From Acaryochloris marina S15 (GTDB lineage Bacteria > Cyanobacteriota > Cyanobacteriia > Thermosynechococcales > Thermosynechococcaceae): 32,000 nucleotides of DNA. Position 1 is the first letter of the stretch; each line of letters starts with the position of its first letter. Positions 1,173-32,000 of this stretch are shown here, in pieces. The stretch lies in contig NZ_CP064923.1 in the NCBI RefSeq assembly GCF_018336915.1, positions 1,470,001-1,502,000 on the forward strand, read 5' to 3'. Both the position numbers and the translations under genes were made by a program. The notes below the pieces were generated by a model. That model had not been told where the DNA came from. It was given only the letters and a program-made list of their open reading frames with translations, and made no database searches.

Positions 1173-3227
1173 ATGAACAAAACGCTTCTTGACGAGAACA
1201 ATGATCATCCCTTGGCAGAAAGCTTTCAGAGAGTCAATGTGATCTCCGAGGATTATCTACGTTTAGCGGTAATTAAACAGGAAGCCAGTCAATCTCAGCT
1301 TTCCTTAGCTGCCTATATTCATCAACTTGAACAATATAACCAGGCACAGCAGTCTACCCCCCCTCCAAAACCACCTCTCCTCAAACCGTTCTCGATTCTG
1401 GATGCCAAGGTGAGTGATTTTGTGGCTTGGCTAGAAATGATTTCTATCATTAAGCTGGCAACGGTCCTGGGCGAAGCAGCTATTCTCATTGCCTTTATTT
1501 CTTATCTTTTCTCTATCCCCTATCAACAGCAGAAAAAAATAGACGATGCTCGTAATGTTCTCGTGGATCAAAAGGGGCAACAACATAGTGATGGCAGAAT
1601 AGCGGCCCTCAAAACCCTCGATTCACTCTGTGCTAGCAATGCTGGCCTGCAAGCCCCCAAGGCCCAAATGGTGGGAATTCAACTGAATCATTGCCACAAA
1701 TTGTTTTTCAGTTTCGAAAGTTTTCACCAATGGCCTTTCCAGTTTTCTGAGCATCAAGGCATTGATTTATCCTATGCAAATTTAGATCGAGCCAATCTTG
1801 CCAAAGCCAATTTAGAAAAAGCCAACCTCAAGGGCAGTAATTTAAAGGGAATCAACCTCAGCGAAGCCAATCTGCAAGGGGCCAATCTGCAAGGGGCCAA
1901 TCTAGAAGGCGCGAATCTAGAAGGGGCCAATCTGCAAGGGGCTAACTTTACGGATGCAGTATTGCACGGCAGCTTTCTCAATAATGCCAATTTAACGAAG
2001 GCCAATCTATCGCAGGCAAAAATGCACAAGGTGCAGGCCTTATGGGCGAAATTTAATCAAGCCAACCTTCATCGCACAGATTTATATCAAGCCAATCTGA
2101 ATCGCTCCAACTTTAAGGGTAGTGATCTGTACAAAGCCAATTTGCAGGATAGCTCCCTCCAATCGGCTGACTTTTTAGACGATGCCAACTTGCGATCGAC
2201 GAACTTGAATAATGCCGATCTCTCTAAAGCCAGCTTTTGGGCACTCCACCAACTCAAACGGGCCAAGCACTGGCAGTCCGCCACTAAAAGTCCCAATTGG
2301 ATGCAAACGATTGCCCGCCCTCGCTCGCCTCGCTTACGAATTGGCCTGATCAAATCAGCCGATAGCACTATCTTTAAAGCCTATGAATTGGGAATGCGGC
2401 GAGCCGCCAATCGACGAGTCGAAATTTGGAGTTTGCTGTCTGCCTCCGGGGTTCAAAATGAAGCCCAAACCATCCAGGAACTGATTGACTCTGGTATTGA
2501 TGCCATCGTGTTGTCTCCAGAAGATCCATTAGGGTCTATCTCAGCCCTTGAAAAGGCTTATCAAGCTGGCGTAGTAGTGATTACAGTCGATTTCTGTTTC
2601 GATAAAGAAACCGCAAAAGATATGGTGTTTGCTTGTTTCAATACCAATAGCTTAAAAATGGGAGCTGATTCGGCAGAACACCTCACCCAATGGGCTTCGA
2701 CCCATCTGCAGGATCAGCCTCTAAATATTGGCGTGGTGGATAGTGCGGAATATGAACGGTATTACCCCAACTATCAAGGCTTCTTAAACGGTATGGCTGC
2801 ATCCGCAGTTAAATGGCGAGAAATTTCTTCCGTAGATGCGATTACTCGAACCGACATTGCTCGCGTTAAAGAAATGCTGTCGGAGAATCCCCAGATCAAT
2901 ATCTTGTGGGGAGGATCTAACTTGGCCACAGAAATTTCTGTGGCGGCAGTAGAAGAATTAGGGTGGCAAGAGAAAGTTAAAGTTTTTGGCATTCTGGATC
3001 TATCTAAAGACAAGGCCCGAATGCTGTTAGATCCCAACAGTCCCCTCCAATCGATCATCGATCAGGCAGGGGTCAAAATCGGCTACAAAGCCGTCCATGC
3101 GGCAGTGGAAGTTTTAAGACATCAAAAAACTCAGTACACCGAATATCCGATAGAACATCGGCTGCTGACCCAGACTGATAAAGCAGCGGTCAAAGAGCTA
3201 TTAACGGAAGCCAACAGCATTCAATAA
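1173..3227 (+). CDS. Membrane-anchored pentapeptide-repeat protein fused to a C-terminal type-I sugar-binding-like PBP domain
   Basis: 684-aa ORF with ATG at 1173. One hydrophobic helix at aa ~89-115 (MISIIKLATVLGEAAILIAFISYLFSI). Aa ~198-355 are consecutive A(N/D)LxX pentapeptides (ANLDRANLAKANLEKANLKGSNLKGINLSEANLQGANLQG...). Aa ~387-684 (RLRIGLIKSADSTIF..IDSGIDAIVLSPEDP..AGVVVITVD) resemble RbsB/LacI-type periplasmic binding proteins. Confidence 0.8.
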   Translation: MNKTLLDENNDHPLAESFQRVNVISEDYLRLAVIKQEASQSQLSLAAYIHQLEQYNQAQQSTPPPKPPLLKPFSILDAKVSDFVAWLEMISIIKLATVLGEAAILIAFISYLFSIPYQQQKKIDDARNVLVDQKGQQHSDGRIAALKTLDSLCASNAGLQAPKAQMVGIQLNHCHKLFFSFESFHQWPFQFSEHQGIDLSYANLDRANLAKANLEKANLKGSNLKGINLSEANLQGANLQGANLEGANLEGANLQGANFTDAVLHGSFLNNANLTKANLSQAKMHKVQALWAKFNQANLHRTDLYQANLNRSNFKGSDLYKANLQDSSLQSADFLDDANLRSTNLNNADLSKASFWALHQLKRAKHWQSATKSPNWMQTIARPRSPRLRIGLIKSADSTIFKAYELGMRRAANRRVEIWSLLSASGVQNEAQTIQELIDSGIDAIVLSPEDPLGSISALEKAYQAGVVVITVDFCFDKETAKDMVFACFNTNSLKMGADSAEHLTQWASTHLQDQPLNIGVVDSAEYERYYPNYQGFLNGMAASAVKWREISSVDAITRTDIARVKEMLSENPQINILWGGSNLATEISVAAVEELGWQEKVKVFGILDLSKDKARMLLDPNSPLQSIIDQAGVKIGYKAVHAAVEVLRHQKTQYTEYPIEHRLLTQTDKAAVKELLTEANSIQ
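1866..1940. repeat. Five tandem 15-bp units (GCCAATCTGCAAGGG consensus), in frame, each encoding one pentapeptide (ANLQG/ANLEG)
   Basis: Units at 1866-1880, 1881-1895, 1896-1910, 1911-1925 and 1926-1940. Three copies are identical and two differ at 2-3 positions. Confidence 0.9.
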
Positions 3228-6421: not shown

Positions 6422-7159
6422 TCACATCTCATCCTCATCCCATGAAGAACTTGCAATCTTCAGCTGCTCCTCATGGATAAATTGCATGGACGTTGGGGTA
6501 GGAATCTTGCGCTCAAATAAAAAAGTCGTAGGGGGTTCACAGAGATAGCAATCTGATTCAAAGGCGATAAACCAACTACACACTTGAATCAAGTGCTTAT
6601 AAGCTTGCCATAGCGGAACATTATACGGGGCCCTCAGGGTTCGTTGGGCAACAGAAAAATGAAAATCTAGCATGCATGCTTCCGTCGTATACCCACATCT
6701 TGGGAAAATCCAAGATATACCCTTTTCCCTTCTCCAGCTCAGGGGTAGATCATCCAGAAATTCATGCTGCAAAAAATTGGCCAGACTCTCGTCAATATAG
6801 CCACCTTTAACTTGGTTGCATGGATAGGCCAATGACCAATCCCAAGAACCGATACTCCCACGAAAGCGTTGTTGAAGATCATGGATTCTTGCCATTTCCA
6901 GGGTCGGGAAAACCATGCCATCCTGGCAATAATATAGGTTATCAAACCGGCCTTTAGTACTTGCTGCCAGAGCATGAGGGCCATCACAATAGTGAATATT
7001 CGGATAAGCCAAGCCAAGGATTTCGTATATCCTTTGAATTACGCCTTGAACTTGATTTCGATCAAGCCTGCTGGTTGAAATCGTGATTCCGTTCCATAAG
7101 CGGCAGTAGGTGGGGATAAAGCTTTTTTCTTCTTCCGTCAGCTCCTGTAACAACGCCAT
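6422..7159 (-). CDS. Hypothetical protein, Cys/Trp-rich; N-terminal and C-terminal blocks reminiscent of a conserved bacterial family (possibly DUF6745-like, named from memory only)
   Basis: 245-aa ORF. N-terminus TEEEKSFIPTYCRLWNGITISTSRLDRNQVQGVIQRIYEILGL and C-terminal WFIAFESDCYLCEPP resemble a recurring uncharacterised family. No catalytic motif recognised. Confidence 0.55.
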   Translation of the reverse strand: MALLQELTEEEKSFIPTYCRLWNGITISTSRLDRNQVQGVIQRIYEILGLAYPNIHYCDGPHALAASTKGRFDNLYYCQDGMVFPTLEMARIHDLQQRFRGSIGSWDWSLAYPCNQVKGGYIDESLANFLQHEFLDDLPLSWRREKGISWIFPRCGYTTEACMLDFHFSVAQRTLRAPYNVPLWQAYKHLIQVCSWFIAFESDCYLCEPPTTFLFERKIPTPTSMQFIHEEQLKIASSSWDEDEM

Positions 7160-7336: not shown

Positions 7337-8347
7337 TCACTTCAACCGGAATAATTTGCGAATGGGGCGCGATGATCTAGCTTCTAGTGAGGTGAGCAAT
7401 TCATACTCTCCTGGACGAAACCTTTTTTTAGAGGGTGTAATCCCTAAGGTAAAGGCCCCAACCTTGCGATCTAGCTCACTCGTTTCTCGAAAAACTTGAA
7501 TGGGGGGAATTTTGTCATCCTTGGTCTTGCCAAGATAGCGGAGGATATAAGTGATTTCAGAATCTCCTCGGAATTGTACATTCGCAATGCTGGGCAATTT
7601 AGCCGTAAAGGCTAGAGTTGTGATGTCAATCGAGAGTTCACTCAAATCTTCGGCACAAGGTTCTTTAGCATCGCTACTCCCCTCACAAATTTTGATACCA
7701 CTGATGCTGTTATTTAAACCAGCATCCTCAATATCCCCCTCATTACGCTTGGTGACATCCTCAGGATCAGTCCATACAGAAAAGATCTGCTCTTCGGCCA
7801 ACGGTTTTTGCTGACCAATTCCTTCCGGCATTAACGTAACGCGGTAGGTACCAGGCTGCAGATTAACCTGATCTAGCTGCAGGGCCACCTCTCGTTTCCC
7901 CTTCGGCACATCAAATACATTGCTAAACACCTCAGACTCTTGGTCAGGCTCTGGCCAATAATCCAGAGTAACCTTAACCTGTTTAGCTGCTTTACCTTTT
8001 CGGAGTTTCGCGCTGACCGAAATGGTTTGAGTTTGTTCTAAGAAAGCAATCTCATGCTTTTCACACTGGCCGTCTACCGGGGATTTACAAACGGCTACAT
8101 TGGTAAAGCGGACCAGATTTCCCCCTGTCACCATCAATGCCGCAAACAAAACCATCACGGCTAAAAATATTTTCAAGAAGCGAGATTTTAGCCAGGGGAA
8201 ACGCTGATTGAGGCGTCCTTGAATGGGAGGGGCCACAAGGATGACGGCGAGTAGTGCAATGATAAAACCAATCCACTCACCTGAAATCAACAAACCTGAA
8301 CTCATGAGAAGTGCAACTACTGTGAGCAGCCACTGAAAAAATTTCAT
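7337..8347 (-). CDS. Membrane protein with N-terminal TM helices and two tandem Cys-pair beta-rich modules
   Basis: 336 aa with 3 hydrophobic helices in aa 1-80. Two ~105-aa modules each begin with a Cys pair (CKSPVDGQC / CEGSSDAKEPC) and end with PGTYRVTL / PGEYELLTSL. Confidence 0.7.
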   Translation of the reverse strand: MKFFQWLLTVVALLMSSGLLISGEWIGFIIALLAVILVAPPIQGRLNQRFPWLKSRFLKIFLAVMVLFAALMVTGGNLVRFTNVAVCKSPVDGQCEKHEIAFLEQTQTISVSAKLRKGKAAKQVKVTLDYWPEPDQESEVFSNVFDVPKGKREVALQLDQVNLQPGTYRVTLMPEGIGQQKPLAEEQIFSVWTDPEDVTKRNEGDIEDAGLNNSISGIKICEGSSDAKEPCAEDLSELSIDITTLAFTAKLPSIANVQFRGDSEITYILRYLGKTKDDKIPPIQVFRETSELDRKVGAFTLGITPSKKRFRPGEYELLTSLEARSSRPIRKLFRLK

Positions 8348-9188: not shown

Positions 9189-10547
9189 ATGCCAATATTG
9201 CCCCGTCAAACTCTCATCACGATTATGTTTATTCTTCGGCTCCAGGTTGCGCTTCTATCTACAGCACTCTCAATAGCAGCCGTCACAACCGCTTTCTCCC
9301 CCCCTAAGACCTGGGCAGCCCCAAAGTCCGATTCCTCCAAAGCCATCATTGACGAGGTTTGGCAAGTTATCAACGGTGATTATTTAGATACAACCTTCAA
9401 TGATACAAATTGGCTTGCTGTTCGCAGCCAATACTTAAACCGCACCTATACGTCCAAAGAAGAAGTCTATGACGCAGTCCGCGAAATGCTGGACAAACTT
9501 GAGGATCCCTATACTCGCTTTTTGGACCCAAAGCAGTTTAAGAACATGCAAATTGATACGTCTGGTGAGCTGACTGGAGTGGGTGTACAAATCACCCAGG
9601 ATGAAAAGACAAAAGACATCACCGTTATTGCTCCGATTGAAGGAAGTCCCGCATCCCAAGCAGGACTCTTAAACAAAGATGTGATCGTTCAAGTGGATGA
9701 TACGAACATCAGAGGGATGGATTTGAATGAAGCGGTCAGCCTCATTCGAGGTCCCGTTAACTCCAACGTGACTCTCACCGTTTTACGGGGTCAGGAGCAG
9801 TTGAGTTTTAAGATCAAGCGGGCTCGCATTGAAATCCATCCTGTTCGATTTTCCACTCAAACGACCCCAGCAGGAACAGTTGGCTATATCCGCCTCAACC
9901 AATTTAGCAACAACGCCACTGCTGAAATGCGCAAAGCCATTCAAGAATTGGAAAAACAACGGGTGACCGGATTCGTTCTAGACCTGCGCTCAAATCCGGG
10001 TGGATTACTGTATTCCAGTGCTGAAATCGCCCGGATGTGGATGGGGGAAGGGACGATTGTGGCCACTGTGGATCGAAAAGGGGGCGAAGATAAACTCACT
10101 TCTGATAAAAACACCCTAACGGATAGGCCTCTTGTCATTCTGGTGGATGGAGGGTCTGCCAGTGCCAGTGAGATTTTGGCCGGGGCATTGCAAGATCATC
10201 AGCGCGCAATCTTGCTCGGAACTCAGACCTTTGGAAAAGGACTCGTTCAGTCTGTAATGCCTTTGGAGGATGACTCTGCTTTAGCCGTAACCGTTTCTAA
10301 ATATATGACTCCCAATGGTCGAGATATTCATAAAAAAGGCATTGAGCCCGATATCGAAGTCAAACTCACCGACAAACAACGAGGCGACCTTTTTCAAAAC
10401 CCAAGCAAACTAGGCACGGAATCGGATCCTCAATATGCAAAAGCGGTAGCCGAACTCAATAAACAAGTTGAAAAACATCGTTGGGAAAAGGTCACCGTTG
10501 CCACCCAGTATCTGTACTCATACCTAAAATCCTTAGTCATGAATTAA
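9189..10547 (+). CDS. Carboxyl-terminal processing protease (S41 peptidase with PDZ domain)
   Basis: PDZ region GELTGVGVQI..IAPIEGSPASQAGL. S41 blocks VLDLRSNPGGLL, DGGSASASEILAGALQD and TFGKGLVQS (Ser/Lys dyad context). Start is ambiguous: TTG at 9165, ATG at 9189 or ATG at 9225. The signal-like helix begins at the 9225 Met. Confidence 0.9.
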   Translation: MPILPRQTLITIMFILRLQVALLSTALSIAAVTTAFSPPKTWAAPKSDSSKAIIDEVWQVINGDYLDTTFNDTNWLAVRSQYLNRTYTSKEEVYDAVREMLDKLEDPYTRFLDPKQFKNMQIDTSGELTGVGVQITQDEKTKDITVIAPIEGSPASQAGLLNKDVIVQVDDTNIRGMDLNEAVSLIRGPVNSNVTLTVLRGQEQLSFKIKRARIEIHPVRFSTQTTPAGTVGYIRLNQFSNNATAEMRKAIQELEKQRVTGFVLDLRSNPGGLLYSSAEIARMWMGEGTIVATVDRKGGEDKLTSDKNTLTDRPLVILVDGGSASASEILAGALQDHQRAILLGTQTFGKGLVQSVMPLEDDSALAVTVSKYMTPNGRDIHKKGIEPDIEVKLTDKQRGDLFQNPSKLGTESDPQYAKAVAELNKQVEKHRWEKVTVATQYLYSYLKSLVMN

Positions 10548-22351: not shown

Positions 22352-24691
22352 TTAGTTCTTAATCCCGTTGGCAACAACGCCCAAGATAGGAATTTGAGCA
22401 ATTTCTAGCATGCGGAGACTTTCCTTCAGGAGGCTTCTGGGAACACTCCCTAGATGTGCAACCACCATTAAGCCATCTGTTTGAGGCGCAATAATCGTTG
22501 GATCCGCGAGGTTTAAGGGTGGGCAGTCGTAAATGATTAAATCAAACTGTTCAGCAAACACGCCCATCAGCTTCTGCATCTTTTGAGATGCCAAGATGCG
22601 AGTCGGATCGGACGGCAACATCCCTGCCGTCAGGACAAAGAGGTTCTCTGTACCCGGTAGTGGATGAATCGTGGACTGAAGATTGCCTTCCGTTGCCATC
22701 AGATCACTCAATCCAGGGCTGTTGGGTAAATTGAGAACGCGGCTAAGACTGGGAGCCCGCAAATCAGCATCGACCAACAAGACTCTTCTTCCCATGGCTG
22801 CTGCCGCCTGAGCAAGGTGCATCGAGGTAGTCGATTTCCCTTCCTGGGGTGAGCAGGATGAAATAACCAGAGAAGAAATCGGTAAGTCAGGATTAAGGAG
22901 GTGCAATTGAGAGTAAAGGGAGCGGAAGGCCTCCAAGAACGGTGAATAGGAGTACTCTGAGGCTTTCTTGTTATTGGCAAAGTTACTCAAACTAGCCAAA
23001 GAGAATTGCTCGTTATTCAGCAATGAAGGCTGTTCCTTTTGCTCAAGCAGAGCGAGTCCCATTTCACTCTTAAGGAAGTCACCTTCCGAAGACAGAAAGG
23101 GAGTTTCTTCTAGCTGCTTTTGCTGAGGGATGATACCTAGGATAGGACGCTTTAATTCAGCTCGAAGATCCTGCAAGGAGTGTATGGCATCATTGGTTCT
23201 GTCAAGAAGAATTGCAATGCCAACACCGAGTAAGAGCCCCAGCATAGTGCCTAAAGCCAAGTCACGCGGTAGATTAGCATCGGTAATAGTTGCTACATTA
23301 GGCTCCCCTAATAACTCCCAGGGCACCTCATTTCTCGCAGCATTAATTAAGAGTTCTTCTCGCTTCTCCAGAAATTTGCGATACGTATCATTGGCAATCT
23401 GCAGTTTCCGCTGCAGATTTTCGTATTGGCGGGTAATGGCAGGCAGTTGCCCCATTTTCTGTTGAAGAGACGTTTGGGCTCTCAGAATCCCCTGTCGTTT
23501 TGCTTCTAAAACTTGCAGCTGTACCGAAGCATCAACAAATTGCTGACTCATCCCCTTCCGGAGGGAGTTTTGATAAGGGAGTGCTGCCGTATCAGGAATC
23601 GTACTGGACAAATTTCGGCCTAGGCTATTGCGGGCCGCCTGGTTGATTAAAGGCAACAGCTTATTACGCTGTTCTCGTAAATCTACGACTTCAGGGTGAT
23701 TACTGGTGAGTTCCGCCGACCGAATGGCGAGTTGAGACTCAATTTCTTGCAATTGCGTCCGCAATTTCTGATAGCTGGGCGATTCGGTCAGAACAGTTGC
23801 AGCTTCAGCACCTGATGGAGTCAGTTTCAGTTGCTGTTGCAATGTTGTATACAGCTGCCGAGTCTCCATGAGCTGAATTTGGTTTTCAGCTAATTGGCCT
23901 TGAATGGCACCAGCTTGAGAGGAAACCTGCCCACCGAAGGTCGCAGGGTCGAGGAGCTGATATTGTTCACGGAACCGCTGCAAAAGTTGCTCAAACTGAC
24001 GGACTTGGCCCTCAGCTTTAGGGAGTTCTCGATCAACAAACTGAATCGCTCTGCCCAAATTTGTTTGTCGTTCACTGACACTGTAGTCTGTATATTGCTG
24101 AGCCACTTCAGCGGCAATAACTTTCGCAGACTCAGGATCGGCAGCATCAAGGCTAACTGACAAGATTTTGGTTGGAGCTTTGTTCTCAGCAACTCGCTCA
24201 ATGGTTAAATTTTTTGCCAACTTTTTGTAAGACAAGTTGGGATACTGAGGGCTCAATTTGTCCGCAATGGGCTGGAGAATTTGAGGACTCAGAAGGATTT
24301 GGATCTGTGTAGGATAATCCAGAACCGTTTGGGAAGCCTGAGAGTTTCCTAAGCCTTGATCCTGAACTGAGGTATTGTTGCCGCTAAGTGAAGACACAAC
24401 CTCACTTTCAGCCGTGACAGGCTCAATCAGGATGCGAAATTGACCTTGGTAAGAAGATGGTCGCGTCCGGCTCCAATATAAAGTTGAAACGGCAACAGCA
24501 GCGGTCACTAAAACGACCACGGGGAAGCGCCGACGAATAGCCCCAAAAAGCTGGCCAAGATTCAGACCTCCTTCTTCTTCTACACCTGCTTGAAAAGATT
24601 GAGGAAGAAGAGTTAGCGCTGGAGTAGGAGTTTCCTTAACGGTCTCCAGTCGCTGTAGTCTCGTCATTTTTGAGTTAGGGCTAGGTTTCAT
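22352..24691 (-). CDS. Polysaccharide co-polymerase / BY-kinase family protein (Wzc/GumC-like), without a C-terminal tyrosine cluster
   Basis: 779 aa. TM helix near aa 55-75, a long coiled-coil-like periplasmic region, and a second TM (LALGTMLGLLLGVGIAILL). C-terminal P-loop domain with Walker A SPQEGKST, A' VLLVDADLR and B LIIYDCPP. The protein ends at ..GVVANGIKN. Confidence 0.85.
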   Translation of the reverse strand: MKPSPNSKMTRLQRLETVKETPTPALTLLPQSFQAGVEEEGGLNLGQLFGAIRRRFPVVVLVTAAVAVSTLYWSRTRPSSYQGQFRILIEPVTAESEVVSSLSGNNTSVQDQGLGNSQASQTVLDYPTQIQILLSPQILQPIADKLSPQYPNLSYKKLAKNLTIERVAENKAPTKILSVSLDAADPESAKVIAAEVAQQYTDYSVSERQTNLGRAIQFVDRELPKAEGQVRQFEQLLQRFREQYQLLDPATFGGQVSSQAGAIQGQLAENQIQLMETRQLYTTLQQQLKLTPSGAEAATVLTESPSYQKLRTQLQEIESQLAIRSAELTSNHPEVVDLREQRNKLLPLINQAARNSLGRNLSSTIPDTAALPYQNSLRKGMSQQFVDASVQLQVLEAKRQGILRAQTSLQQKMGQLPAITRQYENLQRKLQIANDTYRKFLEKREELLINAARNEVPWELLGEPNVATITDANLPRDLALGTMLGLLLGVGIAILLDRTNDAIHSLQDLRAELKRPILGIIPQQKQLEETPFLSSEGDFLKSEMGLALLEQKEQPSLLNNEQFSLASLSNFANNKKASEYSYSPFLEAFRSLYSQLHLLNPDLPISSLVISSCSPQEGKSTTSMHLAQAAAAMGRRVLLVDADLRAPSLSRVLNLPNSPGLSDLMATEGNLQSTIHPLPGTENLFVLTAGMLPSDPTRILASQKMQKLMGVFAEQFDLIIYDCPPLNLADPTIIAPQTDGLMVVAHLGSVPRSLLKESLRMLEIAQIPILGVVANGIKN

Positions 24692-25658: not shown

Positions 25659-26612
25659 TAGCAGTCGCCACTCTAATTAGGACGCTAGGTACAACATATG
25701 TTCCATTGCTTCTCTAAGTGAACCGAAGTGCTCTAATTGGTGTCTAATTCGACTTTTAATCCAAGCCCACGACCGTTCAATCTTATTCAAATCAGGAGAA
25801 TAGGGTGGCAAGTACCACACTTCACATCCTGCGGCTTCTACCAGTTGCTCAATTCGCCCTCCCTTATGGAAGGTGGCATTATCAATGACTAACTTCTGCC
25901 CCGGTTTGAGCATCGGTATCAAACAAGTCTCAAGCCAAATTTCAAATACGGTGCGATTGCAAGCCCCTTCAATCGTGAACGGGGCCATGAGCTGCTTTCC
26001 TCTCAAAGCTGCAATCATATTGACTCGTCCACTTCTGCTACCAGACTTTAAAGCATAGACCCGCTCACCTTTGGGACCATAGCCATAGTCATACTCATCT
26101 CGATTGTCCATCCCTGACTCGTCAGCATAGACGATATCGTCTGGGTCTACTGTTGTTAACTTTTGGACGAACTCAGCCCGTTTGTGCTCATCACGTTGGC
26201 GGTAGCCATAGGTCTTTTTTTTCGAGTAAATCCAATATTCTTCAGCGCTCTTGAAATAGTACGCTCACTGATTTGCCCCTCCCACAACTCGGCCATCTGA
26301 GCTTGGGTTTTATAGCGATGTTCTTGAGCAAAAGCTCGAAACTTATCCCAGTCTGTGATTTTGTGGCTATGGCCAAGGTGTTGTCTAGGGATGGGATGAA
26401 GATCACCTGTTTCTGCTTTGAGACGTTGCCATAGATTAATGGTGTTACGACTGATATGAAAGGTGTCACTCGCTTCTGAGGGAGGCATGCCATCAAGTTC
26501 AATAGCATCGATCACTTTGCAACGTAAATCGTAGCTGTAGATTTTAGGCATCCATTGAAAGACATAACAGTATCTCTAGTTTATTATGTCCTGAATAAAA
26601 TGGCGCTTGCTA
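25659..26612 (-). mobile_element. IS630-family insertion sequence (~954 bp), apparently intact
   Basis: Imperfect ~25-bp terminal inverted repeats: left TAGCAGTCGCCACTCTAATTAGGAC (25659-25683) against the reverse complement of 26588-26612, TAGCAAGCGCCATTTTATTCAGGAC (19/25 match). Flanked by TA at 25657-25658 and 26613-26614, the family's typical TA target duplication. Confidence 0.85.
25677..26551 (-). CDS. IS630 family transposase, two frames joined by a -1 programmed frameshift
   Basis: The upstream frame (26156-26551) encodes the HTH part. The downstream frame is open from the A8 run through 25677 and carries DDE-type blocks (IVYADESGMD, LVIDNATFHK, LPPYSPDLNKIE). The A8 run at 26215-26222 gives an A_AAA_AAG heptamer. 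The fused reading is ..GFTRKKKTYGYRQRDEHKRAEF.. Confidence 0.88.
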
Positions 26613-26622
26613 TATCTTACTA

Positions 26623-28387
26623 CCTACATTCAGCAGGCTAGCTAGCAGAGCAGATAATATTTTTTACAGCCCTTCCCAAGGAACGGCAAGATAAGTTGCT
26701 GCCTGCTGTTGAGCTTGATGAGATGCTTGGCACCATCAAGCCAAACTAAATGGACGGCCTGAAAGCATTGGAGAATCCAACGTAACGTAGGTTTCATAGT
26801 TTGTTTCCCCTTCTGATTAGGGAGAGTTGTTTGTACTTGTTCTAGTGCATTTCTTAACTGTCGTTGTCCTAAGCTGTAGACCATCAAACACAAGGCCATG
26901 ATCATGGCTAAGGCAGCGATACGCCGAGGTGTCTTCAGGAAAACACTAGAGGCAAAGAAGAGTGGATCTTTGATAAAGCGAAAGCCTCCTTCACACGCCT
27001 GCTGGTTCTTATACTCGCGCAGAATATCATCATTGCTCCATTGCTCTTGTTCCAAGAGATTGGTGGCTAAGATGAAACGACCTGCTTGCCGCCGATAGCG
27101 TTCGATGACTGGCTCATTGAGGGTTAAGGTAGCCTCAATAGAATAGGTGTAGTGAGTCACAACCGTTGCTTTTGTCGGTCGTCCAGCCTTTGAATAATGA
27201 GGTTTTTTGTGGATTTTGAGATCGTCAAGGGTGTGATACCTGAGGATTTTGCCAAAATCTTGGGCTGCAGCTAAAGCATCTGCAGGGCACAAGAAGGTCT
27301 GTTTGCAGAGGGTTTTAAGTGCAGTAGTTTTTTGGCTAAACGCCTGATCAATCCGCTTTTGCACTTGTTTGAGTCCAGAGTCTCTGCGAGCTTTACTTTC
27401 AACCACCAGCCACCGTTGTTGAATCTCTCCATAGGTACTACATACTTCGACAAAGCTATAGCCGTTGAGAGCACTGGGGTGAAACTGTGAACCCGGCAGC
27501 CCTTGTAATAAGTCTTGGGCTGCCGTTGAACTTGCTGGAACTCGGCTAATCCAAGATGTACTTCCTAATGCTTGCAGATTGTCGGCACTGTAGAGGGCAC
27601 TATCAGCAACAATCACCTCTGGCTGTTGCTGACTCCACTGTTGCTTAAATTCATGGATGATAGGCACAAACGTACTTTTGTCCGCATCATTACCGTTGCC
27701 CACTTGTAAAAATAAAGGAATACCCCCGTCCCCACTCACCAGTAGGTTCAATACAAACTGCTTGAGATCACGACGATTGTCCCGTGAGTAGCCGTAGGTG
27801 ATTTTCACGGGTATCGGCTCCTCTGATTCAGCCAGTGCAGGGGAGGGGGACTCAGGTGCAGAGGGGGATTCGTCTGACGCCTCAACCTGTGGTTTATCTA
27901 AGTATTGCCCCTCAACACTAAGGCTTGTCGCATCTAGATGCGCACACCTTAGAGCTACATCGAATTTCTGAACGACTGCCATTGCCACATGGATAAATAT
28001 CTGGGTCACACCATAGGCATAGAGCTTGTCGAGGACTCGACCGATACGGGTATCGTTGAGGTGCTCTGGCAGTACACCTTGACCGAGTAAGTGCTCGGTT
28101 GCTTTGCTTTCGAAAAACTCACTAAATAAGTACAATGGAGCACTCAAAAAGCCCATACCATTTAGAATCAGGGCTTTGACAACTTGACCACAACTAACAT
28201 TCTCTTGCTCGTGAGTACCTAATAATCGATCCACTATTTCGACAATGCCGATCTCATCGACGATACCGGCAATAATACCGAGATGGTCAATATCCTGAAC
28301 GTCTATCTCTTGAGGTGAATACATGGACTTGCGTTGAGAGACAACCTCAAAATTATCCCTTGATGGTTAGTACCTGCTGAATGTCGG
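26623..28387 (-). mobile_element. IS1634/IS4-like insertion sequence (~1765 bp), apparently intact
   Basis: 15-bp terminal inverted repeats CCTACATTCAGCAGG (26623-26637) and CCTGCTGAATGTCGG (28373-28387), matching 14/15 when reverse-complemented. 6-bp direct target duplication TTACTA at 26617-26622 and 28388-28393. Confidence 0.85.
26642..28324 (-). CDS. IS1634 family (IS4 superfamily) DDE transposase
   Basis: 560 aa. The N-terminal block DHLGIIAGIVDEIGIVEIVDRLLG..VSCGQVVKALILNGMGF is typical of IS1634-type transposases. DADKSTFVPI and VADSALYSADN are DDE-like contexts. Confidence 0.85.
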   Translation of the reverse strand: MYSPQEIDVQDIDHLGIIAGIVDEIGIVEIVDRLLGTHEQENVSCGQVVKALILNGMGFLSAPLYLFSEFFESKATEHLLGQGVLPEHLNDTRIGRVLDKLYAYGVTQIFIHVAMAVVQKFDVALRCAHLDATSLSVEGQYLDKPQVEASDESPSAPESPSPALAESEEPIPVKITYGYSRDNRRDLKQFVLNLLVSGDGGIPLFLQVGNGNDADKSTFVPIIHEFKQQWSQQQPEVIVADSALYSADNLQALGSTSWISRVPASSTAAQDLLQGLPGSQFHPSALNGYSFVEVCSTYGEIQQRWLVVESKARRDSGLKQVQKRIDQAFSQKTTALKTLCKQTFLCPADALAAAQDFGKILRYHTLDDLKIHKKPHYSKAGRPTKATVVTHYTYSIEATLTLNEPVIERYRRQAGRFILATNLLEQEQWSNDDILREYKNQQACEGGFRFIKDPLFFASSVFLKTPRRIAALAMIMALCLMVYSLGQRQLRNALEQVQTTLPNQKGKQTMKPTLRWILQCFQAVHLVWLDGAKHLIKLNSRQQLILPFLGKGCKKYYLLC

Positions 28388-28820
28388 TTACTATTGTAAT
28401 CTATCTGAAAAACTTTTCTTGTGCTATTCCAACTACTGTAAACAGCAATTAAAACTATATATAAGAATGTAAATATGGCTCTGGCATATAGGTTTAATTC
28501 ACCTATATTCATCAACTAAAATAGGACAGATAAAGTCTTGAGAGTATTATTGCTATAAAGTGGGCAAGCAGGACATAAACCTCGTCCAGCTTGAAAGCAA
28601 GAGTTTTATGAGATGCCTATAAGCCTTTAGGAGGTATGGTTTAGGTACTTAAGTAGCCCCCCTGAAAACTATGGGTCTCAATATGGACAAGGGCTAGTAA
28701 TTCTGCAGCAAGACACTTGCCATTGATCATAAAACAATTCATCAGCTCACAGCATTCGCCAAGCTAGCATGAAGTCCTAAGAAAAAGGCGATCGAGCAGC
28801 AACATATACTTGATTTACCT

Positions 28821-31244
28821 TCAGGTATTAACTAGCTCAGCAGATGCTGATTTTGCTGTGGGGGGTTGCCAGATAGCAGCTTTGATCAAAGCCCAAATCA
28901 GAGAAACATTATAAATGGCCCAAGCAGAGTTAAGAAGATGAAGGCCAGGGTTATCTAAATCACCCATTGCATATCGAATTAGACTCACGGAAAGTCCTAA
29001 TACAGTCAGAACAACAACCGTGATCTGAGGTATCACCAGGCCAACATACATGCCAGATTGACGTTGTTTAGGAGTAACTTGAAACTTAACAGGTCTCCCT
29101 GTGAATACACTCCAAACTGCCTTAATAAAGAGTGGAAAGAGGGCGATGGCAAATTGTTCTGCTCGCCATAACTCATTCTTCTTAATGCCCCAAGCGGCGG
29201 CCATAAAGGTAATCCGATTGAGAATGAAGGCAGGTACAAAATGGATGGCAAACGCCAAGCCATAGGTCTGTACGGGTATTGCTTCAGTAAAAAAGTAAAT
29301 CAGCGGACAAGCAATGAAGATCAGGGTAAAAAATCCAGAGAAGTAACTATACATGGTCTGGAAATATTGCAGCTGCTGCCAAACGGTAAGACCTTTTTTT
29401 GCCAGGGGATTTTCTTGCAACAGGACCTGAACAGTGCCCTGTGCCCATCGAAGTCGCTGTTTTAGGGTAGAGCTCAGGTCATCTGGTGCTAAGCCAACCG
29501 CTAATACTTCATGGTGATACACTGACTTCCATCCTGCAGCATGGAGTCGCATGGCTGTATTCATGTCTTCCGTAATACTGGCACTGGAGACACCCCCCAC
29601 CAACTCAAACTCCTCTAGGCGTTTTTGATCGGCGATATATTCATCCGCGAAATTTTGTAGCCCGGTGGTAACCAATGCTTCGCGACGTAAAACAGCATTT
29701 GTGCCCGTGTAAAAGGCTGAACTCATGCCATCCTTGCCCTGTTGAATTGGACCATAGAACAATCGAGCTTGATGACCGAAAGGGTCACCGGGAGGAAGAT
29801 TATAGAAGTCTTGTGGGGTTTGGACAAAGGCAATATCGCTGTCTTTGTATGCCCCCTCTTGCATACTGTAATCAAAGAAATAGGGCAGTGCTCGCTGAAG
29901 AAAATGAGGTTTAGGAATATGGTCGGCATCTAGGGTCAAGATCAGATCGCCGGTTGTTTCTCCAGAAAACAAGGCATAGTTAATATTGCCTGCTTTAGCA
30001 TGATGGGGTTTCCCTTTAGGCTTAGGACGGGCAATATATCGGCTGCGCGCTAGGTCAACTAATTCCTGTTCTTTTTGCTCAATGGTGCGCTGTAAGACCT
30101 TGACTTCTGCTTTTAGATAGTCAGCCACTGAGCCATATTGATGATTGAGCAGACGGGTACTCTGTTGGAGGCTATGGAGATAACCCACTAACTGCTGATT
30201 TTGATCTTGAACGCCAGTTGCTTCTGGCGCAAAGAACTTGATGGCAATTAAACACTGACGTTTATCGGGAGTGGGGTTATAGCTGACAAAGTCAGTGAAT
30301 TGGCTCATGATGCCAAAGCCTCTCCCCCCTTCATCCATCAGATCCACATCTTCCAGAGATTTGAAAATTTTGTCAGGGTTGTCTAGACCTGGACCTCGGT
30401 CCCAAATTTGCAGTACTAAAACATTACTGGAAATGTTGAGCTCCAAGTCAATCGGCGTGGTGTGGGGCAGATCCTTATGGGCATATTTCAAGACATTATC
30501 CACACCCTCACCCAATACCGTTTGCAGCTCTAACCAAGGTTTCATGGGAATGTGAGGCTGCTGAAGCTGCCCAAACCAGTCCAGGGCCGCCTGGGCGTTT
30601 TCCCGTTTGGTTTCTAGGGTTAAGGTATGAGACTTTAATTGCTCCTCTCCGGCAGCAATTTCTGAGACGAGACTCTGGAGATGCTGCAGCTGCGCTTTGA
30701 GGTGTAGACGTTGCGAGTTGATCTCATCCGCTGCCGCACGAAGTTGTGGTGTTTGCAAATCCCCAATACATAATTGCTCCGACATTTGCCGCATTTGAGG
30801 GGAGTTGCCGTCATCCAGTACATAGACCTTCAGCTTTGTTGCAGGATAGTCCATGCTCAAGGCCGCTTTAGCCGTTTCCCGAACCATCTCAACCGGTTCG
30901 TTATAGCAGGTAATAAATACATCTACTCTCGGCCATTTAGCCTCTGGCAAAGCGGGGCGCATTTGTCTGAGGGGTTTGGCATCTCGGATAATGGGTCGCC
31001 ACAGACCAATAAAAAACATGACGCCGCCAATATAGCTATATATTTCAGCGAGTAATAGTGGAATGGCTATCCATAGGGCATTGAAGTTGACCGAATTCAG
31101 GATTCGCCACTGTAAATACCAGCCCCCAAAAATGAGGTTTATGATCACCAGAAACCGAAAGAGTAGGGTTCTATCCTTGAGTCTGATGCGAATATTGCCA
31201 GAAAAGGCAGGGGTATTTTCAATAATGGGGACGGCATTAGTCAT
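28821..31244 (-). CDS. Processive family-2 glycosyltransferase (cellulose-synthase-like) carrying an internal coiled-coil + GHKL ATPase-like insertion
   Basis: 807 aa. N-terminal TM pair, then VYVLDDG, HAKAGNINYAL, TLDADH, ITEDMNT, QRLRWAQG and FQVTPK, then a C-terminal TM bundle. A ~250-aa insert at aa ~152-402 contains LGEGVDNVLKYAH / IWDRGPGLD / DEGGRGFGIMSQFTDFVSY. No PilZ domain. Confidence 0.9.
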   Translation of the reverse strand: MTNAVPIIENTPAFSGNIRIRLKDRTLLFRFLVIINLIFGGWYLQWRILNSVNFNALWIAIPLLLAEIYSYIGGVMFFIGLWRPIIRDAKPLRQMRPALPEAKWPRVDVFITCYNEPVEMVRETAKAALSMDYPATKLKVYVLDDGNSPQMRQMSEQLCIGDLQTPQLRAAADEINSQRLHLKAQLQHLQSLVSEIAAGEEQLKSHTLTLETKRENAQAALDWFGQLQQPHIPMKPWLELQTVLGEGVDNVLKYAHKDLPHTTPIDLELNISSNVLVLQIWDRGPGLDNPDKIFKSLEDVDLMDEGGRGFGIMSQFTDFVSYNPTPDKRQCLIAIKFFAPEATGVQDQNQQLVGYLHSLQQSTRLLNHQYGSVADYLKAEVKVLQRTIEQKEQELVDLARSRYIARPKPKGKPHHAKAGNINYALFSGETTGDLILTLDADHIPKPHFLQRALPYFFDYSMQEGAYKDSDIAFVQTPQDFYNLPPGDPFGHQARLFYGPIQQGKDGMSSAFYTGTNAVLRREALVTTGLQNFADEYIADQKRLEEFELVGGVSSASITEDMNTAMRLHAAGWKSVYHHEVLAVGLAPDDLSSTLKQRLRWAQGTVQVLLQENPLAKKGLTVWQQLQYFQTMYSYFSGFFTLIFIACPLIYFFTEAIPVQTYGLAFAIHFVPAFILNRITFMAAAWGIKKNELWRAEQFAIALFPLFIKAVWSVFTGRPVKFQVTPKQRQSGMYVGLVIPQITVVVLTVLGLSVSLIRYAMGDLDNPGLHLLNSAWAIYNVSLIWALIKAAIWQPPTAKSASAELVNT

Positions 31245-31462: not shown

Positions 31463-32000
31463 TTATTTGTTATTGTTTTTGGACAGAGCGCTGTTTGGGG
31501 CTCCCCAATAGGTCCCGGTCGAATCAGTAATAAGCTGCAATTTAGGTTTGGGGGTAGGGGGTAAGCCCGTACCAATTTCTTCGTTGGCAACGGCTTTCCA
31601 CCAGGGGGAGCTACGGGAGATATCGGCGACGAGTAACGGTTGGCGATCGCGCAAACGATACAAGATTGACTGCAGGACAATACTATTGGTGGAGCCACTA
31701 AAACCAGGATTAGACTGGCCCGATTGCTCGTTTACCCCTTCGTAAAAACCCAATACGGGGTTATACAGGTCTAATGCTGACTGATACAGCTCTTGAGCGT
31801 AGTCATTGTCGGGAAAAATTGCGTGATAGGCAAAGGCTGCAGCACTGCTGATGACCCGTTGCTCAGACTCTAGTGCTTTGTTCGCACTTGAAGCCGCCCA
31901 AGCTTTTTTATCTTTATCCATCAGACTGCTATGAATGACGTAAGGGGCCTTAGTCGACAGGGTTGTTCCAGCTGCAGTCAGTACCCCTTCCCGGTTATAC
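31463..32000 (-). CDS. Hypothetical protein, probably extracytoplasmic and glycan-associated (possibly DUF3131/glycoamylase-like), 5' end outside the window
   Basis: The minus-strand frame stays open from 31463 to the window end (..YNREGVLTAAGTTLSTKAPYVIHSSLMDKDKK..). The block FYEGVNEQSG..GSTNSIVLQSILYRL recalls cyanobacterial DUF3131-type proteins, from memory only. Confidence 0.55.
   Translation of the reverse strand, partial: YNREGVLTAAGTTLSTKAPYVIHSSLMDKDKKAWAASSANKALESEQRVISSAAAFAYHAIFPDNDYAQELYQSALDLYNPVLGFYEGVNEQSGQSNPGFSGSTNSIVLQSILYRLRDRQPLLVADISRSSPWWKAVANEEIGTGLPPTPKPKLQLITDSTGTYWGAPNSALSKNNNK

Follow-up and report, generated by a model that had tools for sequence, protein, structure and literature searches.

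For gating by c-di-GMP and PilZ, the standard example is the cellulose synthase of bacteria. The PilZ-less synthases of cyanobacteria are often treated as relatives of plant CesA, and a 2025 review lists their control as an open question. The insert in their catalytic domain is called a 'plant-like PCR domain' of undetermined mechanism in the same review and was described as an insertion of ~90 amino acids by Zhao in 2015. As the original prediction supposed, it had thus been noticed but not recognised: no link of the insert to a kinase was found in the searchable literature (Nobles 2001 excluded). The Pfam domain of the insert is already precomputed in databases, and some members are titled 'ATP-binding protein' by NCBI.

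The HcyA-D partner-switching system of Nostoc punctiforme was described by Klicki et al. in 2022 (PMC9127174). Its components are HcyA, a STAS protein; HcyB, a PP2C; HcyC, a kinase of the SpoIIAB/RsbW type; and HcyD, a multi-sensor hybrid histidine kinase. HcyA binds HcyC, no binding of HcyC to SigC, SigF or SigJ was seen in two-hybrid assays, and hcy mutants are altered in the transcription of hormogonium genes (gvpA, pilM). The target of HcyC was left open by the authors, and the words 'cellulose' and 'glycosyl' are absent from the text of the paper (PMC9127174). In Anabaena PCC 7120 a partner-switching-like module, All4160/HenR/Alr3423, exerts direct control over a polysaccharide glycosyltransferase (Harada et al. 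2026, PMC13555669). The STAS domain of All4160 did not interact with Alr3760, a kinase of Anabaena whose gene lies three positions downstream of cesA (alr3757) (PMC13555669). All2285 and XssP are named beside All4160 as STAS-glycosyltransferase comparators.

Here we present an analysis of a synthase gene in a window of 32,000 nucleotides, the whole stretch of DNA studied. On balance we favour the reading that this gene represents, in fused form, a five-component set conserved among cyanobacteria, in which partner switching acts on the synthase. Polymer export would then probably be switched by protein phosphorylation and not by c-di-GMP. The features of the locus, in the order of transcription, are as follows.

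Positions 31463..32000, minus strand: C-terminal end of a DUF3131 protein that runs past the window edge (PF11329, 6.4e-27).
Positions 28821..31244, minus strand: synthase ORF of 807 aa, a PilZ-less CesA/BcsA-type processive GT2 (ORF, Pfam, AF2 and Foldseek).
Positions 30807..30815, minus strand: DDG, aa 144-146, the last GT-A element N-terminal to the insert (translation).
Positions 30627..30800, minus strand: helical arm 1 of the hairpin, aa 149-206 (AF2 helices H149-163 and H166-206).
Positions 30225..30626, minus strand: SpoIIAB/RsbW/HcyC-type GHKL serine-kinase domain, aa 207-340, as predicted by PF13581, Foldseek and alignments.
Positions 30477..30515, minus strand: N box LGEGVDNVLKYAH with E246, N250 and H256 (translation).
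Positions 30381..30407, minus strand: G1 box IWDRGPGLD with D282, G284 and G286 (translation).
Positions 30306..30332, minus strand: G2 box and end of the ATP lid, EGGRGFGIM, with E305, G307, R308 and G309 (translation).
Positions 30057..30203, minus strand: helical arm 2 of the hairpin, aa 348-396 (AF2 helices H348-366 and H373-396).
Positions 29985..30005, minus strand: HHAKAGN, aa 414-420, where the GT-A domain restarts past the insert (translation).
Positions 29922..29930, minus strand: DAD (DxD), aa 439-441 (translation; invariant among 84 sequences).
Positions 29565..29573, minus strand: TED, aa 558-560 (translation).
Positions 29445..29459, minus strand: QRLRW (QxxRW), aa 596-600 (translation).
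Positions 29067..29084, minus strand: gating-loop motif FQVTPK, aa 721-726 (translation).

IS elements adjoin the downstream side of the synthase gene.

In Pfam the 807-aa product matches Cellulose_synt (4.7e-35), GT2 families and HATPase_c_2. Its AF2 model (pLDDT 83, pTM 0.75) contains two N-terminal and five to six C-terminal TM helices. Foldseek searches with the whole synthase delivered BcsA (9b8v_E, 2.8e-24), 4p00_A and the plant CesA structures 8vht and 6wlb at TMq values of 0.50-0.57, the plant structures ranking among the top matches. The processive GT2 set of D, DxD, TED, QxxRW and FxVTxK is complete and in order with TM helices flanking, and every motif of the original prediction translates at the place given for it. 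D144 of the DDG motif occurs in 84/84 homologues and G146 in at least 90%, both being invariant in a set of 25 sequences. In HHAKAGN, H414 and N420 are invariant among the 84 sequences and H415, A416, K417, A418 and G419 are conserved in at least 90%, while F721, V723, T724 and K726 of FQVTPK are invariant in the homologue alignment. No PilZ domain was found in the protein by Pfam profile search, even at E<=10, as had been claimed for its C-terminus. The scores stay below the equivalog cut-offs for BcsA (TIGR03030, 323 vs 699 bits; NF008558, 258 vs 992). The synthase would be a beta-glucan synthase, with cellulose as its probable product. In PCC 7002, mutation of A2118 led to the loss of a cellulase-sensitive, CBM-labelled layer (PMC4851311); judged by its length, SYNPCC7002_A2118 (788 aa) is probably of the fused type.

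The BcsA models TIGR03030 and PRK11498 align with the protein in two stretches, of which the C-terminal one begins at aa 384 or 401, so the GT domain is interrupted by the insert. The extra ~250 residues between DDG and HAKAGN (30039-30791, aa 152-402) that had been predicted are thus found again in both the motif positions and the split model matches. Motifs and the AF2 model place the insert with its helical arms between the first catalytic D and DxD, which agrees with the proposed topological match to the P-CR of plant CesA. The plant P-CR has this equal position but no GHKL domain, and the likeness of the hairpin to it may be positional only. According to the AF2 model both arms make up a hairpin that carries the GHKL domain at its tip. 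In that model long helices are present where coiled-coil flanks had been claimed; the first claimed segment (aa 165-225) overruns the GHKL domain by ~20 residues.

The assignment of the insert to the RsbW/SpoIIAB type stood up to profile, sequence and structure searches. PF13581 (HATPase_c_2) matches with E=3.2e-14 and scores 53.5 bits where the gathering cut-off is 27.4, spanning profile positions 6-121 (116 of 127); the general HATPase_c profile stays slightly under its threshold (23.9 vs 26.4). SpoIIAB was the sole match of a phmmer search against the PDB, with a residue-for-residue alignment over 33-124. Foldseek aligned ~135 columns with SpoIIAB (1til_E, 1th8_A, 1l0o_A) at TM 0.75-0.78, rmsd 3.2-3.5 A, probability 1.00 and 21-22% identity, and the order of secondary-structure elements in the model matches the Bergerat alpha/beta sandwich of SpoIIAB. 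Since the SpoIIAB/RsbW models of NCBIfam score far under cut-off (TIGR01925, 24.6 vs 135 bits; NF003144, 18.4 vs 145), the domain is, by these scores, a distinct GHKL subfamily and not SpoIIAB or RsbW at equivalog level. A database search with the domain gave 228 matches at E<=1e-3 among 1.8 billion representatives.

The N, G1 and G2 boxes all translate in the order claimed and are conserved family-wide. In the N box E246, N250, A255 and H256 each occur in 84/84 homologues, as do D282 and G284 in the G1 box, where the second glycine, G286, is Gly in 19/84 only. In the G2 box, which aligns with ERSGMGFTIM of SpoIIAB, E305 and G309 are found in 84/84, G307 in 81/84 and R308 in 82/84 homologues. 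Mean identity is 43% in the GHKL domain against 71-74% in the GT core, and the kinase motif residues are nonetheless invariant; judged from the alignment, they are under purifying selection. We infer that the domain is a serine kinase acting on a STAS protein, with ATP binding and phosphotransfer predicted from its conserved residues and, indirectly, from the invariant serine of the STAS proteins.

The fused synthase-kinase architecture is widespread in cyanobacteria. A clade of Nostocales differs in that the synthase carries the hairpin only, and an orthologous kinase stands alone; in a neighbour-joining tree these split forms are one clade nested inside the fused forms. The two patterns are complementary: a stand-alone kinase gene is found at 21/24 split loci and at 0/36 fused loci. 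Split synthases keep both helical arms and miss aa ~206-350 alone, and the stand-alone kinases of 138 aa align end to end with the window insert. The G1 Asp is replaced by Ser in 20/21 stand-alone kinases from Nostocaceae, and one lineage (L056) has a degenerate kinase domain. Because the second G1 glycine varies in the fused forms and the G1 Asp is exchanged in the stand-alone ones, catalysis may be dispensable to the system.

The split module is, on sequence grounds, the published HcyA-D system, because in two split loci (L059 and L061) the start of the stand-alone kinase ORF is matched perfectly, with 0 mismatches, by the published primer for NpF1684, and S49 of HcyA, the site of the S49A exchange, is the invariant STAS serine.

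Of 46 fused loci, 36 have a STAS gene at most 1.5 kb downstream of the synthase, in 34 of them on the same strand; 24 of 26 split loci also have one at that distance. The linked STAS protein has 108 aa, and its phospho-Ser position is invariant in 65/65 sequences. No STAS gene was found in the 32,000-nt window, and 10/46 fused loci have none within 8-10 kb, those of the whole A. marina clade among them. A syntenic relative free of IS elements (L083) likewise has no linked STAS gene, so the absence in this clade is not caused by IS elements. Acaryochloris genomes encode an unlinked orthologue of the synthase-linked STAS, 82% identical, at a housekeeping locus; this orthologue and the linked genes of the 36 fused relatives bear out the earlier expectation that a STAS partner lies beyond the window. 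A PP2C gene (Pfam SpoIIE, 1e-39 to 1e-40) lies no more than 6 kb away in 16/36 fused loci and in 22/24 split loci, and none was found in the 32,000-nt window. Near the relatives of the window the PP2C architectures are RR-PAS-GAF-SpoIIE, GAF-CHASE3-PAS-GAF-SpoIIE and RR-SpoIIE. Among 60 other neighbouring ORFs from 16 loci, 13 are hybrid histidine kinase or Hpt genes, and no sigma-factor or transcription-factor family is recurrent. The DUF3131 protein, of which the complete A. marina gene encodes 1550 aa with three DUF3131 domains, is a conserved upstream partner of the synthase; its gene is the immediate upstream neighbour at 27/43 fused loci and at 24/26 split loci.

The five-component set would consist of the synthase itself together with a single-domain STAS protein resembling HcyA, a sensor PP2C that resembles HcyB and often has a receiver domain, a kinase resembling HcyC, and a hybrid histidine kinase plus Hpt resembling HcyD. 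With the fold, motifs, insertion point, gene linkage and complementary fused and split forms observed here, the most likely mechanism is that docking and phosphorylation of STAS on the embedded kinase gate the synthase. Signals would be carried to the PP2C by the phosphorelay and by its own PAS and GAF domains, and the PP2C would dephosphorylate STAS-P. Unphosphorylated STAS would then bind the kinase domain within the synthase, and docking would alter synthase activity or assembly via the hairpin, with the synthase in the role played by the sigma factor in classical partner switching. With ATP, the kinase domain would finally phosphorylate the STAS serine, releasing STAS and resetting the switch. 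If anti-sigma logic and Hcy genetics are a guide, the kinase domain would be inhibitory and STAS binding activating. In the window genome the STAS partner would act from a gene unlinked to the synthase.

A more specific version is offered tentatively, as somewhat short of an even chance. Here the embedded domain would be a cis-acting 'anti-sigma-like' brake, freed by unphosphorylated STAS and replacing the PilZ/c-di-GMP gate, and the target of HcyC would be the neighbouring CesA, on whose hairpin it docks. If this is true, UV-A/light signalling is linked to glucan secretion, and the hairpin is a regulatory docking element at the plant P-CR position.

Several observations count against gating of the synthase as the best explanation. 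The window and 10/46 fused loci have no linked STAS gene, and the G1 box varies as described above. The transcriptional effects of hcy mutations fit poorly with the synthase as sole output, and the review gives Npun_F1469 as the cellulose synthase gene of N. punctiforme, whereas hcyA is Npun_F1682. Together with the target of HcyC left open (PMC9127174), the changed gvpA and pilM expression speaks for a signal that runs in reverse or past the synthase, which would then be a membrane scaffold, or a sensor that modulates the kinase according to its own state of catalysis or assembly. Systems with STAS as the output are documented (PMC8256260, PMC6495340), and the unlinked STAS of 10/46 fused loci, including the clade of the window with its housekeeping locus, points the same way. 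We nevertheless consider such a flow of signal unlikely. The PP2C (receiver, PAS, GAF, CHASE3) and the neighbouring hybrid kinases already take care of sensory input, which leaves the output position to the kinase-bearing protein. Scaffolding alone poorly explains a covalent insertion at a hairpin that is kept even where the kinase is separate, and genes for transcription factors or sigma factors do not recur nearby (60 ORFs, 16 loci).

It is quite improbable that the domain works without phosphotransfer, as a nucleotide sensor or as a structural or oligomerisation module. Its role could then be coupling to the ATP level, binding of another nucleotide such as c-di-GMP, or dimerisation of the synthase by a SpoIIAB-like interface and the hairpin. 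In the histidine kinase CckA, c-di-GMP is reported to bind to the ATPase domain. The missing PilZ domain, the variable second G1 glycine (19/84 Gly), the stand-alone Nostocaceae orthologues without the adenine-binding Asp, and the degenerate domain of the L056 lineage would all fit such a role, as would the plant P-CR, which at the equal position is thought to mediate CesA rosette assembly (2025 review). These points are met by the invariance of E246, N250, D282, G284 and G309 in 84/84 fused proteins, and by the joint presence of a PP2C and a STAS protein whose phospho-Ser is invariant, a combination that is sensible only with a phosphorylation cycle.

An artefactual origin of the insert (as an assembly chimera, the remnant of a mobile element or a motif match by chance) could be suspected from the IS elements directly downstream, but can be dismissed with near certainty, because the insert is found in frame at the identical site in over 100 full-length homologues that represent many orders of cyanobacteria, complete genomes included, among them the complete chromosome of Acaryochloris marina MBIC11017 with a homologue of 96% amino-acid identity, and because the PF13581 score is twice the gathering score, the fold is predicted with confidence and the kinase motif residues are under purifying selection.

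Under the preferred reading, partner switching on the synthase, a 'PCR-like' insert becomes a kinase with STAS, PP2C and histidine kinase partners, a concrete mechanism that can be tested by mutants. If true, this would be a second way to switch a processive synthase and would offer a candidate target for the Nostoc Hcy system and a regulatory handle for engineering cyanobacterial cellulose production.

Compared with known systems, the synthase shares the GT2 fold and the motifs D, DxD, TED, QxxRW and FxVTxK with BcsA, but BcsA is gated by PilZ and c-di-GMP whereas the window synthase has no PilZ domain and falls below the BcsA equivalog cut-offs. It is a member of the cyanobacterial 'CesA with PCR domain' class (alr3757, SYNPCC7002_A2118), the PilZ-less class of the review. 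With SpoIIAB and RsbW the insert has in common the fold, the N, G1 and G2 boxes and a domain size of ~140 aa; SpoIIAB and RsbW are free-standing, however, while the window kinase domain is embedded in a membrane enzyme. Like SpoIIAB/RsbW with SpoIIAA/RsbV and SpoIIE/RsbU, the relatives of the window pair a STAS protein carrying a conserved Ser with a PP2C, but genes of the classical target, a sigma factor, do not recur among their neighbours (60 ORFs, 16 loci). RsbK-RsbY of Bacillus cereus is a partner-switching variant with a hybrid kinase and a receiver-PP2C, and this type of input likewise lies beside the relatives of the window.

The Hcy system has the same four regulators, and its strand pattern (+,-,+,-) equals that of the split loci. 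Its type of kinase is homologous to the window insert over the whole length, but is a separate protein of 138 aa with the G1 Asp changed to Ser, whereas the window domain is fused and keeps the Asp. SypA/SypE of Vibrio fischeri and HmpU/V/W of N. punctiforme are also STAS/kinase/phosphatase modules that are linked to polysaccharide-dependent behaviour or motility, with no known sigma factor as output; they involve no enzyme fusion, and their STAS protein is regarded as the output (PMC8256260, PMC6495340). The present system would add to the recent finding that Rsb-type phosphorylation switches of cyanobacteria act directly on polysaccharide enzymes. The All4160 module joins its STAS domain to an initiating Bac_transf sugar transferase and leaves the kinase free; the window type has it the other way round, with the kinase built into a processive GT2 synthase and a free STAS protein.

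The synthase is a GT2 enzyme of the BcsA/CesA type, encoded in the window by one open reading frame:

28821-31244, minus strand: synthase ORF, 807 aa (ORF translation)

Translation places the processive GT2 motifs where the original prediction had put them, namely DDG at aa 144-146, HHAKAGN at 414-420, DAD at 439-441, TED at 558-560, QRLRW at 596-600 and FQVTPK at 721-726, and it also recovers all three proposed GHKL boxes, LGEGVDNVLKYAH, IWDRGPGLD and EGGRGFGIM. In Pfam the protein matches Cellulose_synt and GT2 families, with HATPase_c_2 (PF13581) lying inside them; the suggested check against the PF13581 profile gave E=3.2e-14 and 53.5 bits versus a gathering score of 27.4, and covered profile positions 6-121 of 127. 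That the insert interrupts the glycosyltransferase (GT) domain is borne out by the BcsA equivalog models, which score far under their cutoffs and align in two pieces, the C-terminal one from aa 384 or 401 onward. No PilZ domain was found in the synthase by the Pfam search, as had been noted. The motifs, the boxes, the PF13581 match, the split BcsA match and the lack of PilZ therefore make the observation real, far beyond chance. More than 100 homologues, one of them on a complete A. marina chromosome, share the insert in frame, which rules out an assembly chimera or chance motifs.

An AlphaFold2 model was built from an 84-sequence family alignment (mean pLDDT 83.1, pTM 0.75). In this model a GT-A domain extends to aa 148 and is followed by helices 149-163 and 166-206, a compact alpha/beta unit at aa 207-340, helices 348-366 and 373-396, and finally the remaining GT domain with the C-terminal membrane helices; within the alpha/beta unit confidence is lowest around the ATP lid. 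Foldseek searches of the PDB with the whole protein returned BcsA (9b8v_E, E=2.8e-24) and plant CesA trimers. The predicted SpoIIAB-like fold of the insert was found as well, with Foldseek matches to 1til_E, 1th8_A and 1l0o_A (TM 0.75-0.78, rmsd 3.2-3.5 A, 21-22% identity). A PDB sequence search with aa 201-347 gave SpoIIAB as the sole match, aligned over residues 33-124 without register shift; thus the insert is a whole SpoIIAB-sized kinase and no fragment. We regard the assignment of the insert to the GHKL domains as virtually certain; the original finding is real, and its interpretation holds.

More than 100 full-length homologues of about 800 aa (55-95% identity) carry the domain at the identical place. 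This fused type occurs in Acaryochloris, Coleofasciculaceae, Lyngbya, Calothrix, Pleurocapsa, Geminocystis, Nodosilinea and Leptolyngbya-type cyanobacteria, and some of its members are named 'ATP-binding protein' by NCBI. The counterpart in A. marina MBIC11017 shares 96% amino-acid identity with the window synthase and 89% DNA identity over the gene region. Across 84 sequences the mean identity to the window is 43% for the kinase domain and 71-74% for the GT core; the former is the faster-evolving part. With the kinase domain alone as query, a word-index search gave no match, and an exhaustive search of representative sequences was used in its place. Residues E246, N250, A255, H256, D282, G284, E305 and G309 are invariant across the 84 sequences, and G307 and R308 almost so; DxGxG has its second glycine in only 19 of the 84, the window among them. 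Invariant box residues amid a fast-evolving domain indicate, at the level of sequence, selection on a nucleotide-binding or catalytic site.

The gene neighbourhood was surveyed in 80 loci from one scan of species-representative genomes, in which ORFs were searched with synthase, insert, STAS, PP2C and DUF3131 seeds. Besides the fused type (about 800 aa, n=50) a split type of about 660 aa without GHKL domain (n=26) was found in Nostocaceae, Microcoleus, Aliterella and Scytolyngbya.

Partner-switching genes near fused-type and split-type synthases
STAS gene at most 1.5 kb downstream: fused 36 of 46 (34 on the same strand), split 24 of 26
PP2C gene within 6 kb: fused 16 of 36, split 22 of 24
Stand-alone GHKL gene: fused 0 of 36, split 21 of 24

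The stand-alone GHKL proteins of split loci have about 138 aa and align end to end with the window insert (E=1e-14 to 1e-25). Pfam confirmed STAS, RR-SpoIIE and HATPase_c_2 in one split locus; the PP2C proteins of fused loci show the architectures RR-PAS-GAF-SpoIIE or GAF-CHASE3-PAS-GAF-SpoIIE. The STAS serine is invariant (65 of 65) within an F-(M/I)-(N/D)-S-(S/T)-G motif. Hybrid histidine kinases make up 13 of the 60 other neighbouring ORFs in 16 loci, and 11 of these have Hpt; no sigma-factor family recurs among the same ORFs, and a conserved sigma-factor gene beside the module was sought and not found. It is highly probable that the insert belongs to a partner-switching set.

Two STAS genes are present in some fused loci, as a tandem downstream pair (L025, 10428-11122) or with an extra upstream copy (L009, 1573-1932). 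In Nostocales split loci an ORF of about 180-250 aa lies between synthase and STAS (L060 10019-10723, L081 10043-10783, L073 10323-10871), consistent with an accession gap in the genome of split locus L059 (MEH2432797). The annotation puts the split synthase of Nostoc flagelliforme CCNUN1 (P0408) on a plasmid, in a 327-kb record ('bcsA, cellulose synthase (plasmid)'). Usually one or two DUF3131 proteins are encoded upstream of the synthase, either about 490 aa long with one domain or 1000-1550 aa long with three tandem domains; such partners are seen in the window (31463-32000, minus strand), in MBIC11017 (L003), in L001, L008 and others, and in the syntenic relative L083 a sugar-phosphate nucleotidyltransferase takes their place. 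For DUF3131 function, a PDB sequence search gave a marginal sole match (8wy1_A, 'Glycosyltransferase 36', E=0.067), and the four papers found to name the domain are unrelated.

In alignment with fused synthases the split ones keep both helical arms of the insert and are without exactly aa ~206-350, where a short turn is found instead; the kinase therefore occupies the tip of a hairpin, and the hairpin itself is conserved in this class of synthases. In a midpoint-rooted NJ tree of the GT core, computed with the insert removed and without support values, all split forms constitute one clade nested among fused forms, and this tree suggests that a single fission placed the kinase in its own gene, three genes downstream. 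A degenerate form is the 762-aa long-branch synthase of locus L056 (7935-10223), with a shortened insert that has lost the N-box Asn and G2 and gives no Pfam HATPase_c_2 match; a divergent STAS gene (E=1e-15) is retained immediately downstream at 10227-10538. All 21 stand-alone kinases (split loci L059-L082, e.g. L059 12695-13111) retain the E and N of the N box. The G1-box Asp, the adenine contact in GHKL proteins, is kept in all 84 fused proteins and in the kinase of Scytolyngbya (L073), and is replaced by Ser (RIWSQGE) in 20 of the 21 stand-alone HcyC-type kinases, all 20 from Nostocaceae. The free kinases with G1 Ser may differ in nucleotide binding or may be pseudokinases.

No PP2C gene was found in the window. 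Downstream of the synthase an IS4-like element, an IS630-type element and a Wzc-like gene follow in this order:

26622-28388: IS4-like element of about 1.77 kb, starting ~430 bp past the synthase stop codon
26642-28324, minus strand: IS4-like transposase, 560 aa, DUF4277 and DDE_Tnp_1
25677-26551: IS630-family element with two ORFs, HTH_Tnp_IS630 (131 aa) and DDE_3 (144 aa)
22352-24691, minus strand: Wzc-like polysaccharide co-polymerase of the P-loop tyrosine-kinase type, Wzz and ParA/AAA_31, 779 aa

The IS4-like element has 16-nt terminal inverted repeats (26622-26637 and 28373-28388, 94% complementary) and is absent from MBIC11017 and from the syntenic L083. The IS630 copy is the only IS shared with MBIC11017, at the same place (L003 10827-11703), which makes it the older of the two insertions. 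A STAS gene or remnant displaced by these elements was sought in the window with tblastn and a 67-sequence STAS HMM on six-frame translations, and nothing was detected (best E 1.4). L083, which is 73% identical, IS-free and otherwise syntenic, is likewise without a STAS gene there; the lack of STAS is therefore characteristic of this A. marina clade and does not stem from IS damage. Two other Acaryochloris MAGs have a STAS gene just downstream of the synthase on the opposite strand, and Acaryochloris chromosomes carry an 82%-identical orthologue of it at an ftsH/TPR locus. There is thus a candidate partner that is unlinked to the synthase. In the window, MBIC11017 and L083 alike, the first conserved gene downstream of the synthase is the Wzc-like one; it may act together with the synthase or in a separate EPS pathway of the Wzx/Wzy type. 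Elsewhere in the window, ORFs of 245 and 336 aa (6422-7159 and 7337-8347, both minus strand) have no Pfam match at E<=0.01, and a periplasmic-binding-protein gene (4-1080) is followed by that of a 684-aa protein (1173-3227, plus strand) with pentapeptide repeats and a periplasmic sugar-binding-protein domain (Peripla_BP_4/1).

Zhao et al. showed in 2015 (PMC4851311) that a CBM-labelled wall layer sensitive to cellulase depends on SYNPCC7002_A2118 (788 aa); in a comparison with the 693-aa Nostoc enzyme they mentioned 'an insertion of ~90 amino acids' and did not identify it. Judged by length alone, A2118 is probably of the fused type. A 2025 review, which calls the insert a 'plant-like PCR domain', leaves open whether PilZ-less cyanobacterial synthases work like plant CesA, and the words ATPase, kinase and STAS are nowhere in its text. 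The split cluster of Anabaena PCC 7120 comprises alr3756 (uncharacterised protein), reported in one operon with cesA, alr3757 (cesA), alr3758 (anti-sigma antagonist, HetR-dependent, up in heterocysts), alr3760 (candidate serine kinase) and alr3761 (sensor kinase).

Klicki et al. (2022; PMC9127174) described the four-gene Hcy system of Nostoc punctiforme, consisting of hcyA (Npun_F1682, STAS), hcyB (phosphatase), hcyC (Npun_F1684, kinase) and hcyD (Npun_R1685, hybrid kinase). Split loci show the same composition and the same arrangement of strands. Over its 29 gene-specific nt, the NpF1684 two-hybrid primer is identical to the beginning of the stand-alone kinase ORF (nt 1-29) in L059 and L061 and has 2-4 mismatches to it in ten other Nostoc loci. 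The 5' flank primer lies in the PP2C gene, and the residue changed in HcyA S49A corresponds to the invariant serine in the STAS alignment; so the split module is Hcy. N. punctiforme is absent from the members listed in the 90% clusters of L059 genes. HcyA-HcyC interaction was shown in that study, HcyC did not bind SigC, SigF or SigJ, and the target of HcyC was left open, the synthase being nowhere mentioned. Synthase family, Pfam domain and Hcy system were each on record before. Searches of open-access full text found no earlier link of a cyanobacterial cellulose synthase to HATPase, anti-sigma or STAS, and the connection of synthase family, GHKL domain and Hcy appears not to have been made before in the searchable literature. 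It opens two questions to direct experiment, the regulation of cyanobacterial cellulose synthases that have no PilZ domain and the target of HcyC.

The analysis shows a SpoIIAB-type domain whose motifs are intact, carried by a conserved hairpin of the GT domain; genes for its partners recur beside the synthase in relatives, and fused and split loci complement one another. In the mechanism we infer, a phosphorelay and PAS/GAF inputs would control PP2C, which would set the phosphorylation state of STAS; unphosphorylated STAS would bind the kinase domain on the synthase and alter synthase activity or assembly through the hairpin, and the kinase domain would then phosphorylate STAS and so release it. 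Loss of hcyA weakens the response and loss of hcyC relieves repression, which by analogy would fit the kinase as inhibitor and STAS as relief of inhibition. The Hcy genetics suit equally well a model in which STAS is the output, and the main argument for that model is that Hcy mutants also alter hormogonium gene transcription (PMC9127174). Direct gating of the synthase by its embedded kinase domain is given a slight preference, at little better than even chances.

A related arrangement was described by Harada et al. in 2026 (PMC13555669), in which the HenR phosphatase and the Alr3423 kinase, in a partner-switching-like manner, directly regulate a STAS-fused glycosyltransferase, and phosphorylation control of polysaccharide enzymes was proposed as a cyanobacterial strategy. 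The module reported here is its mirror image: here the kinase is fused to the enzyme, there STAS is fused to the glycosyltransferase.
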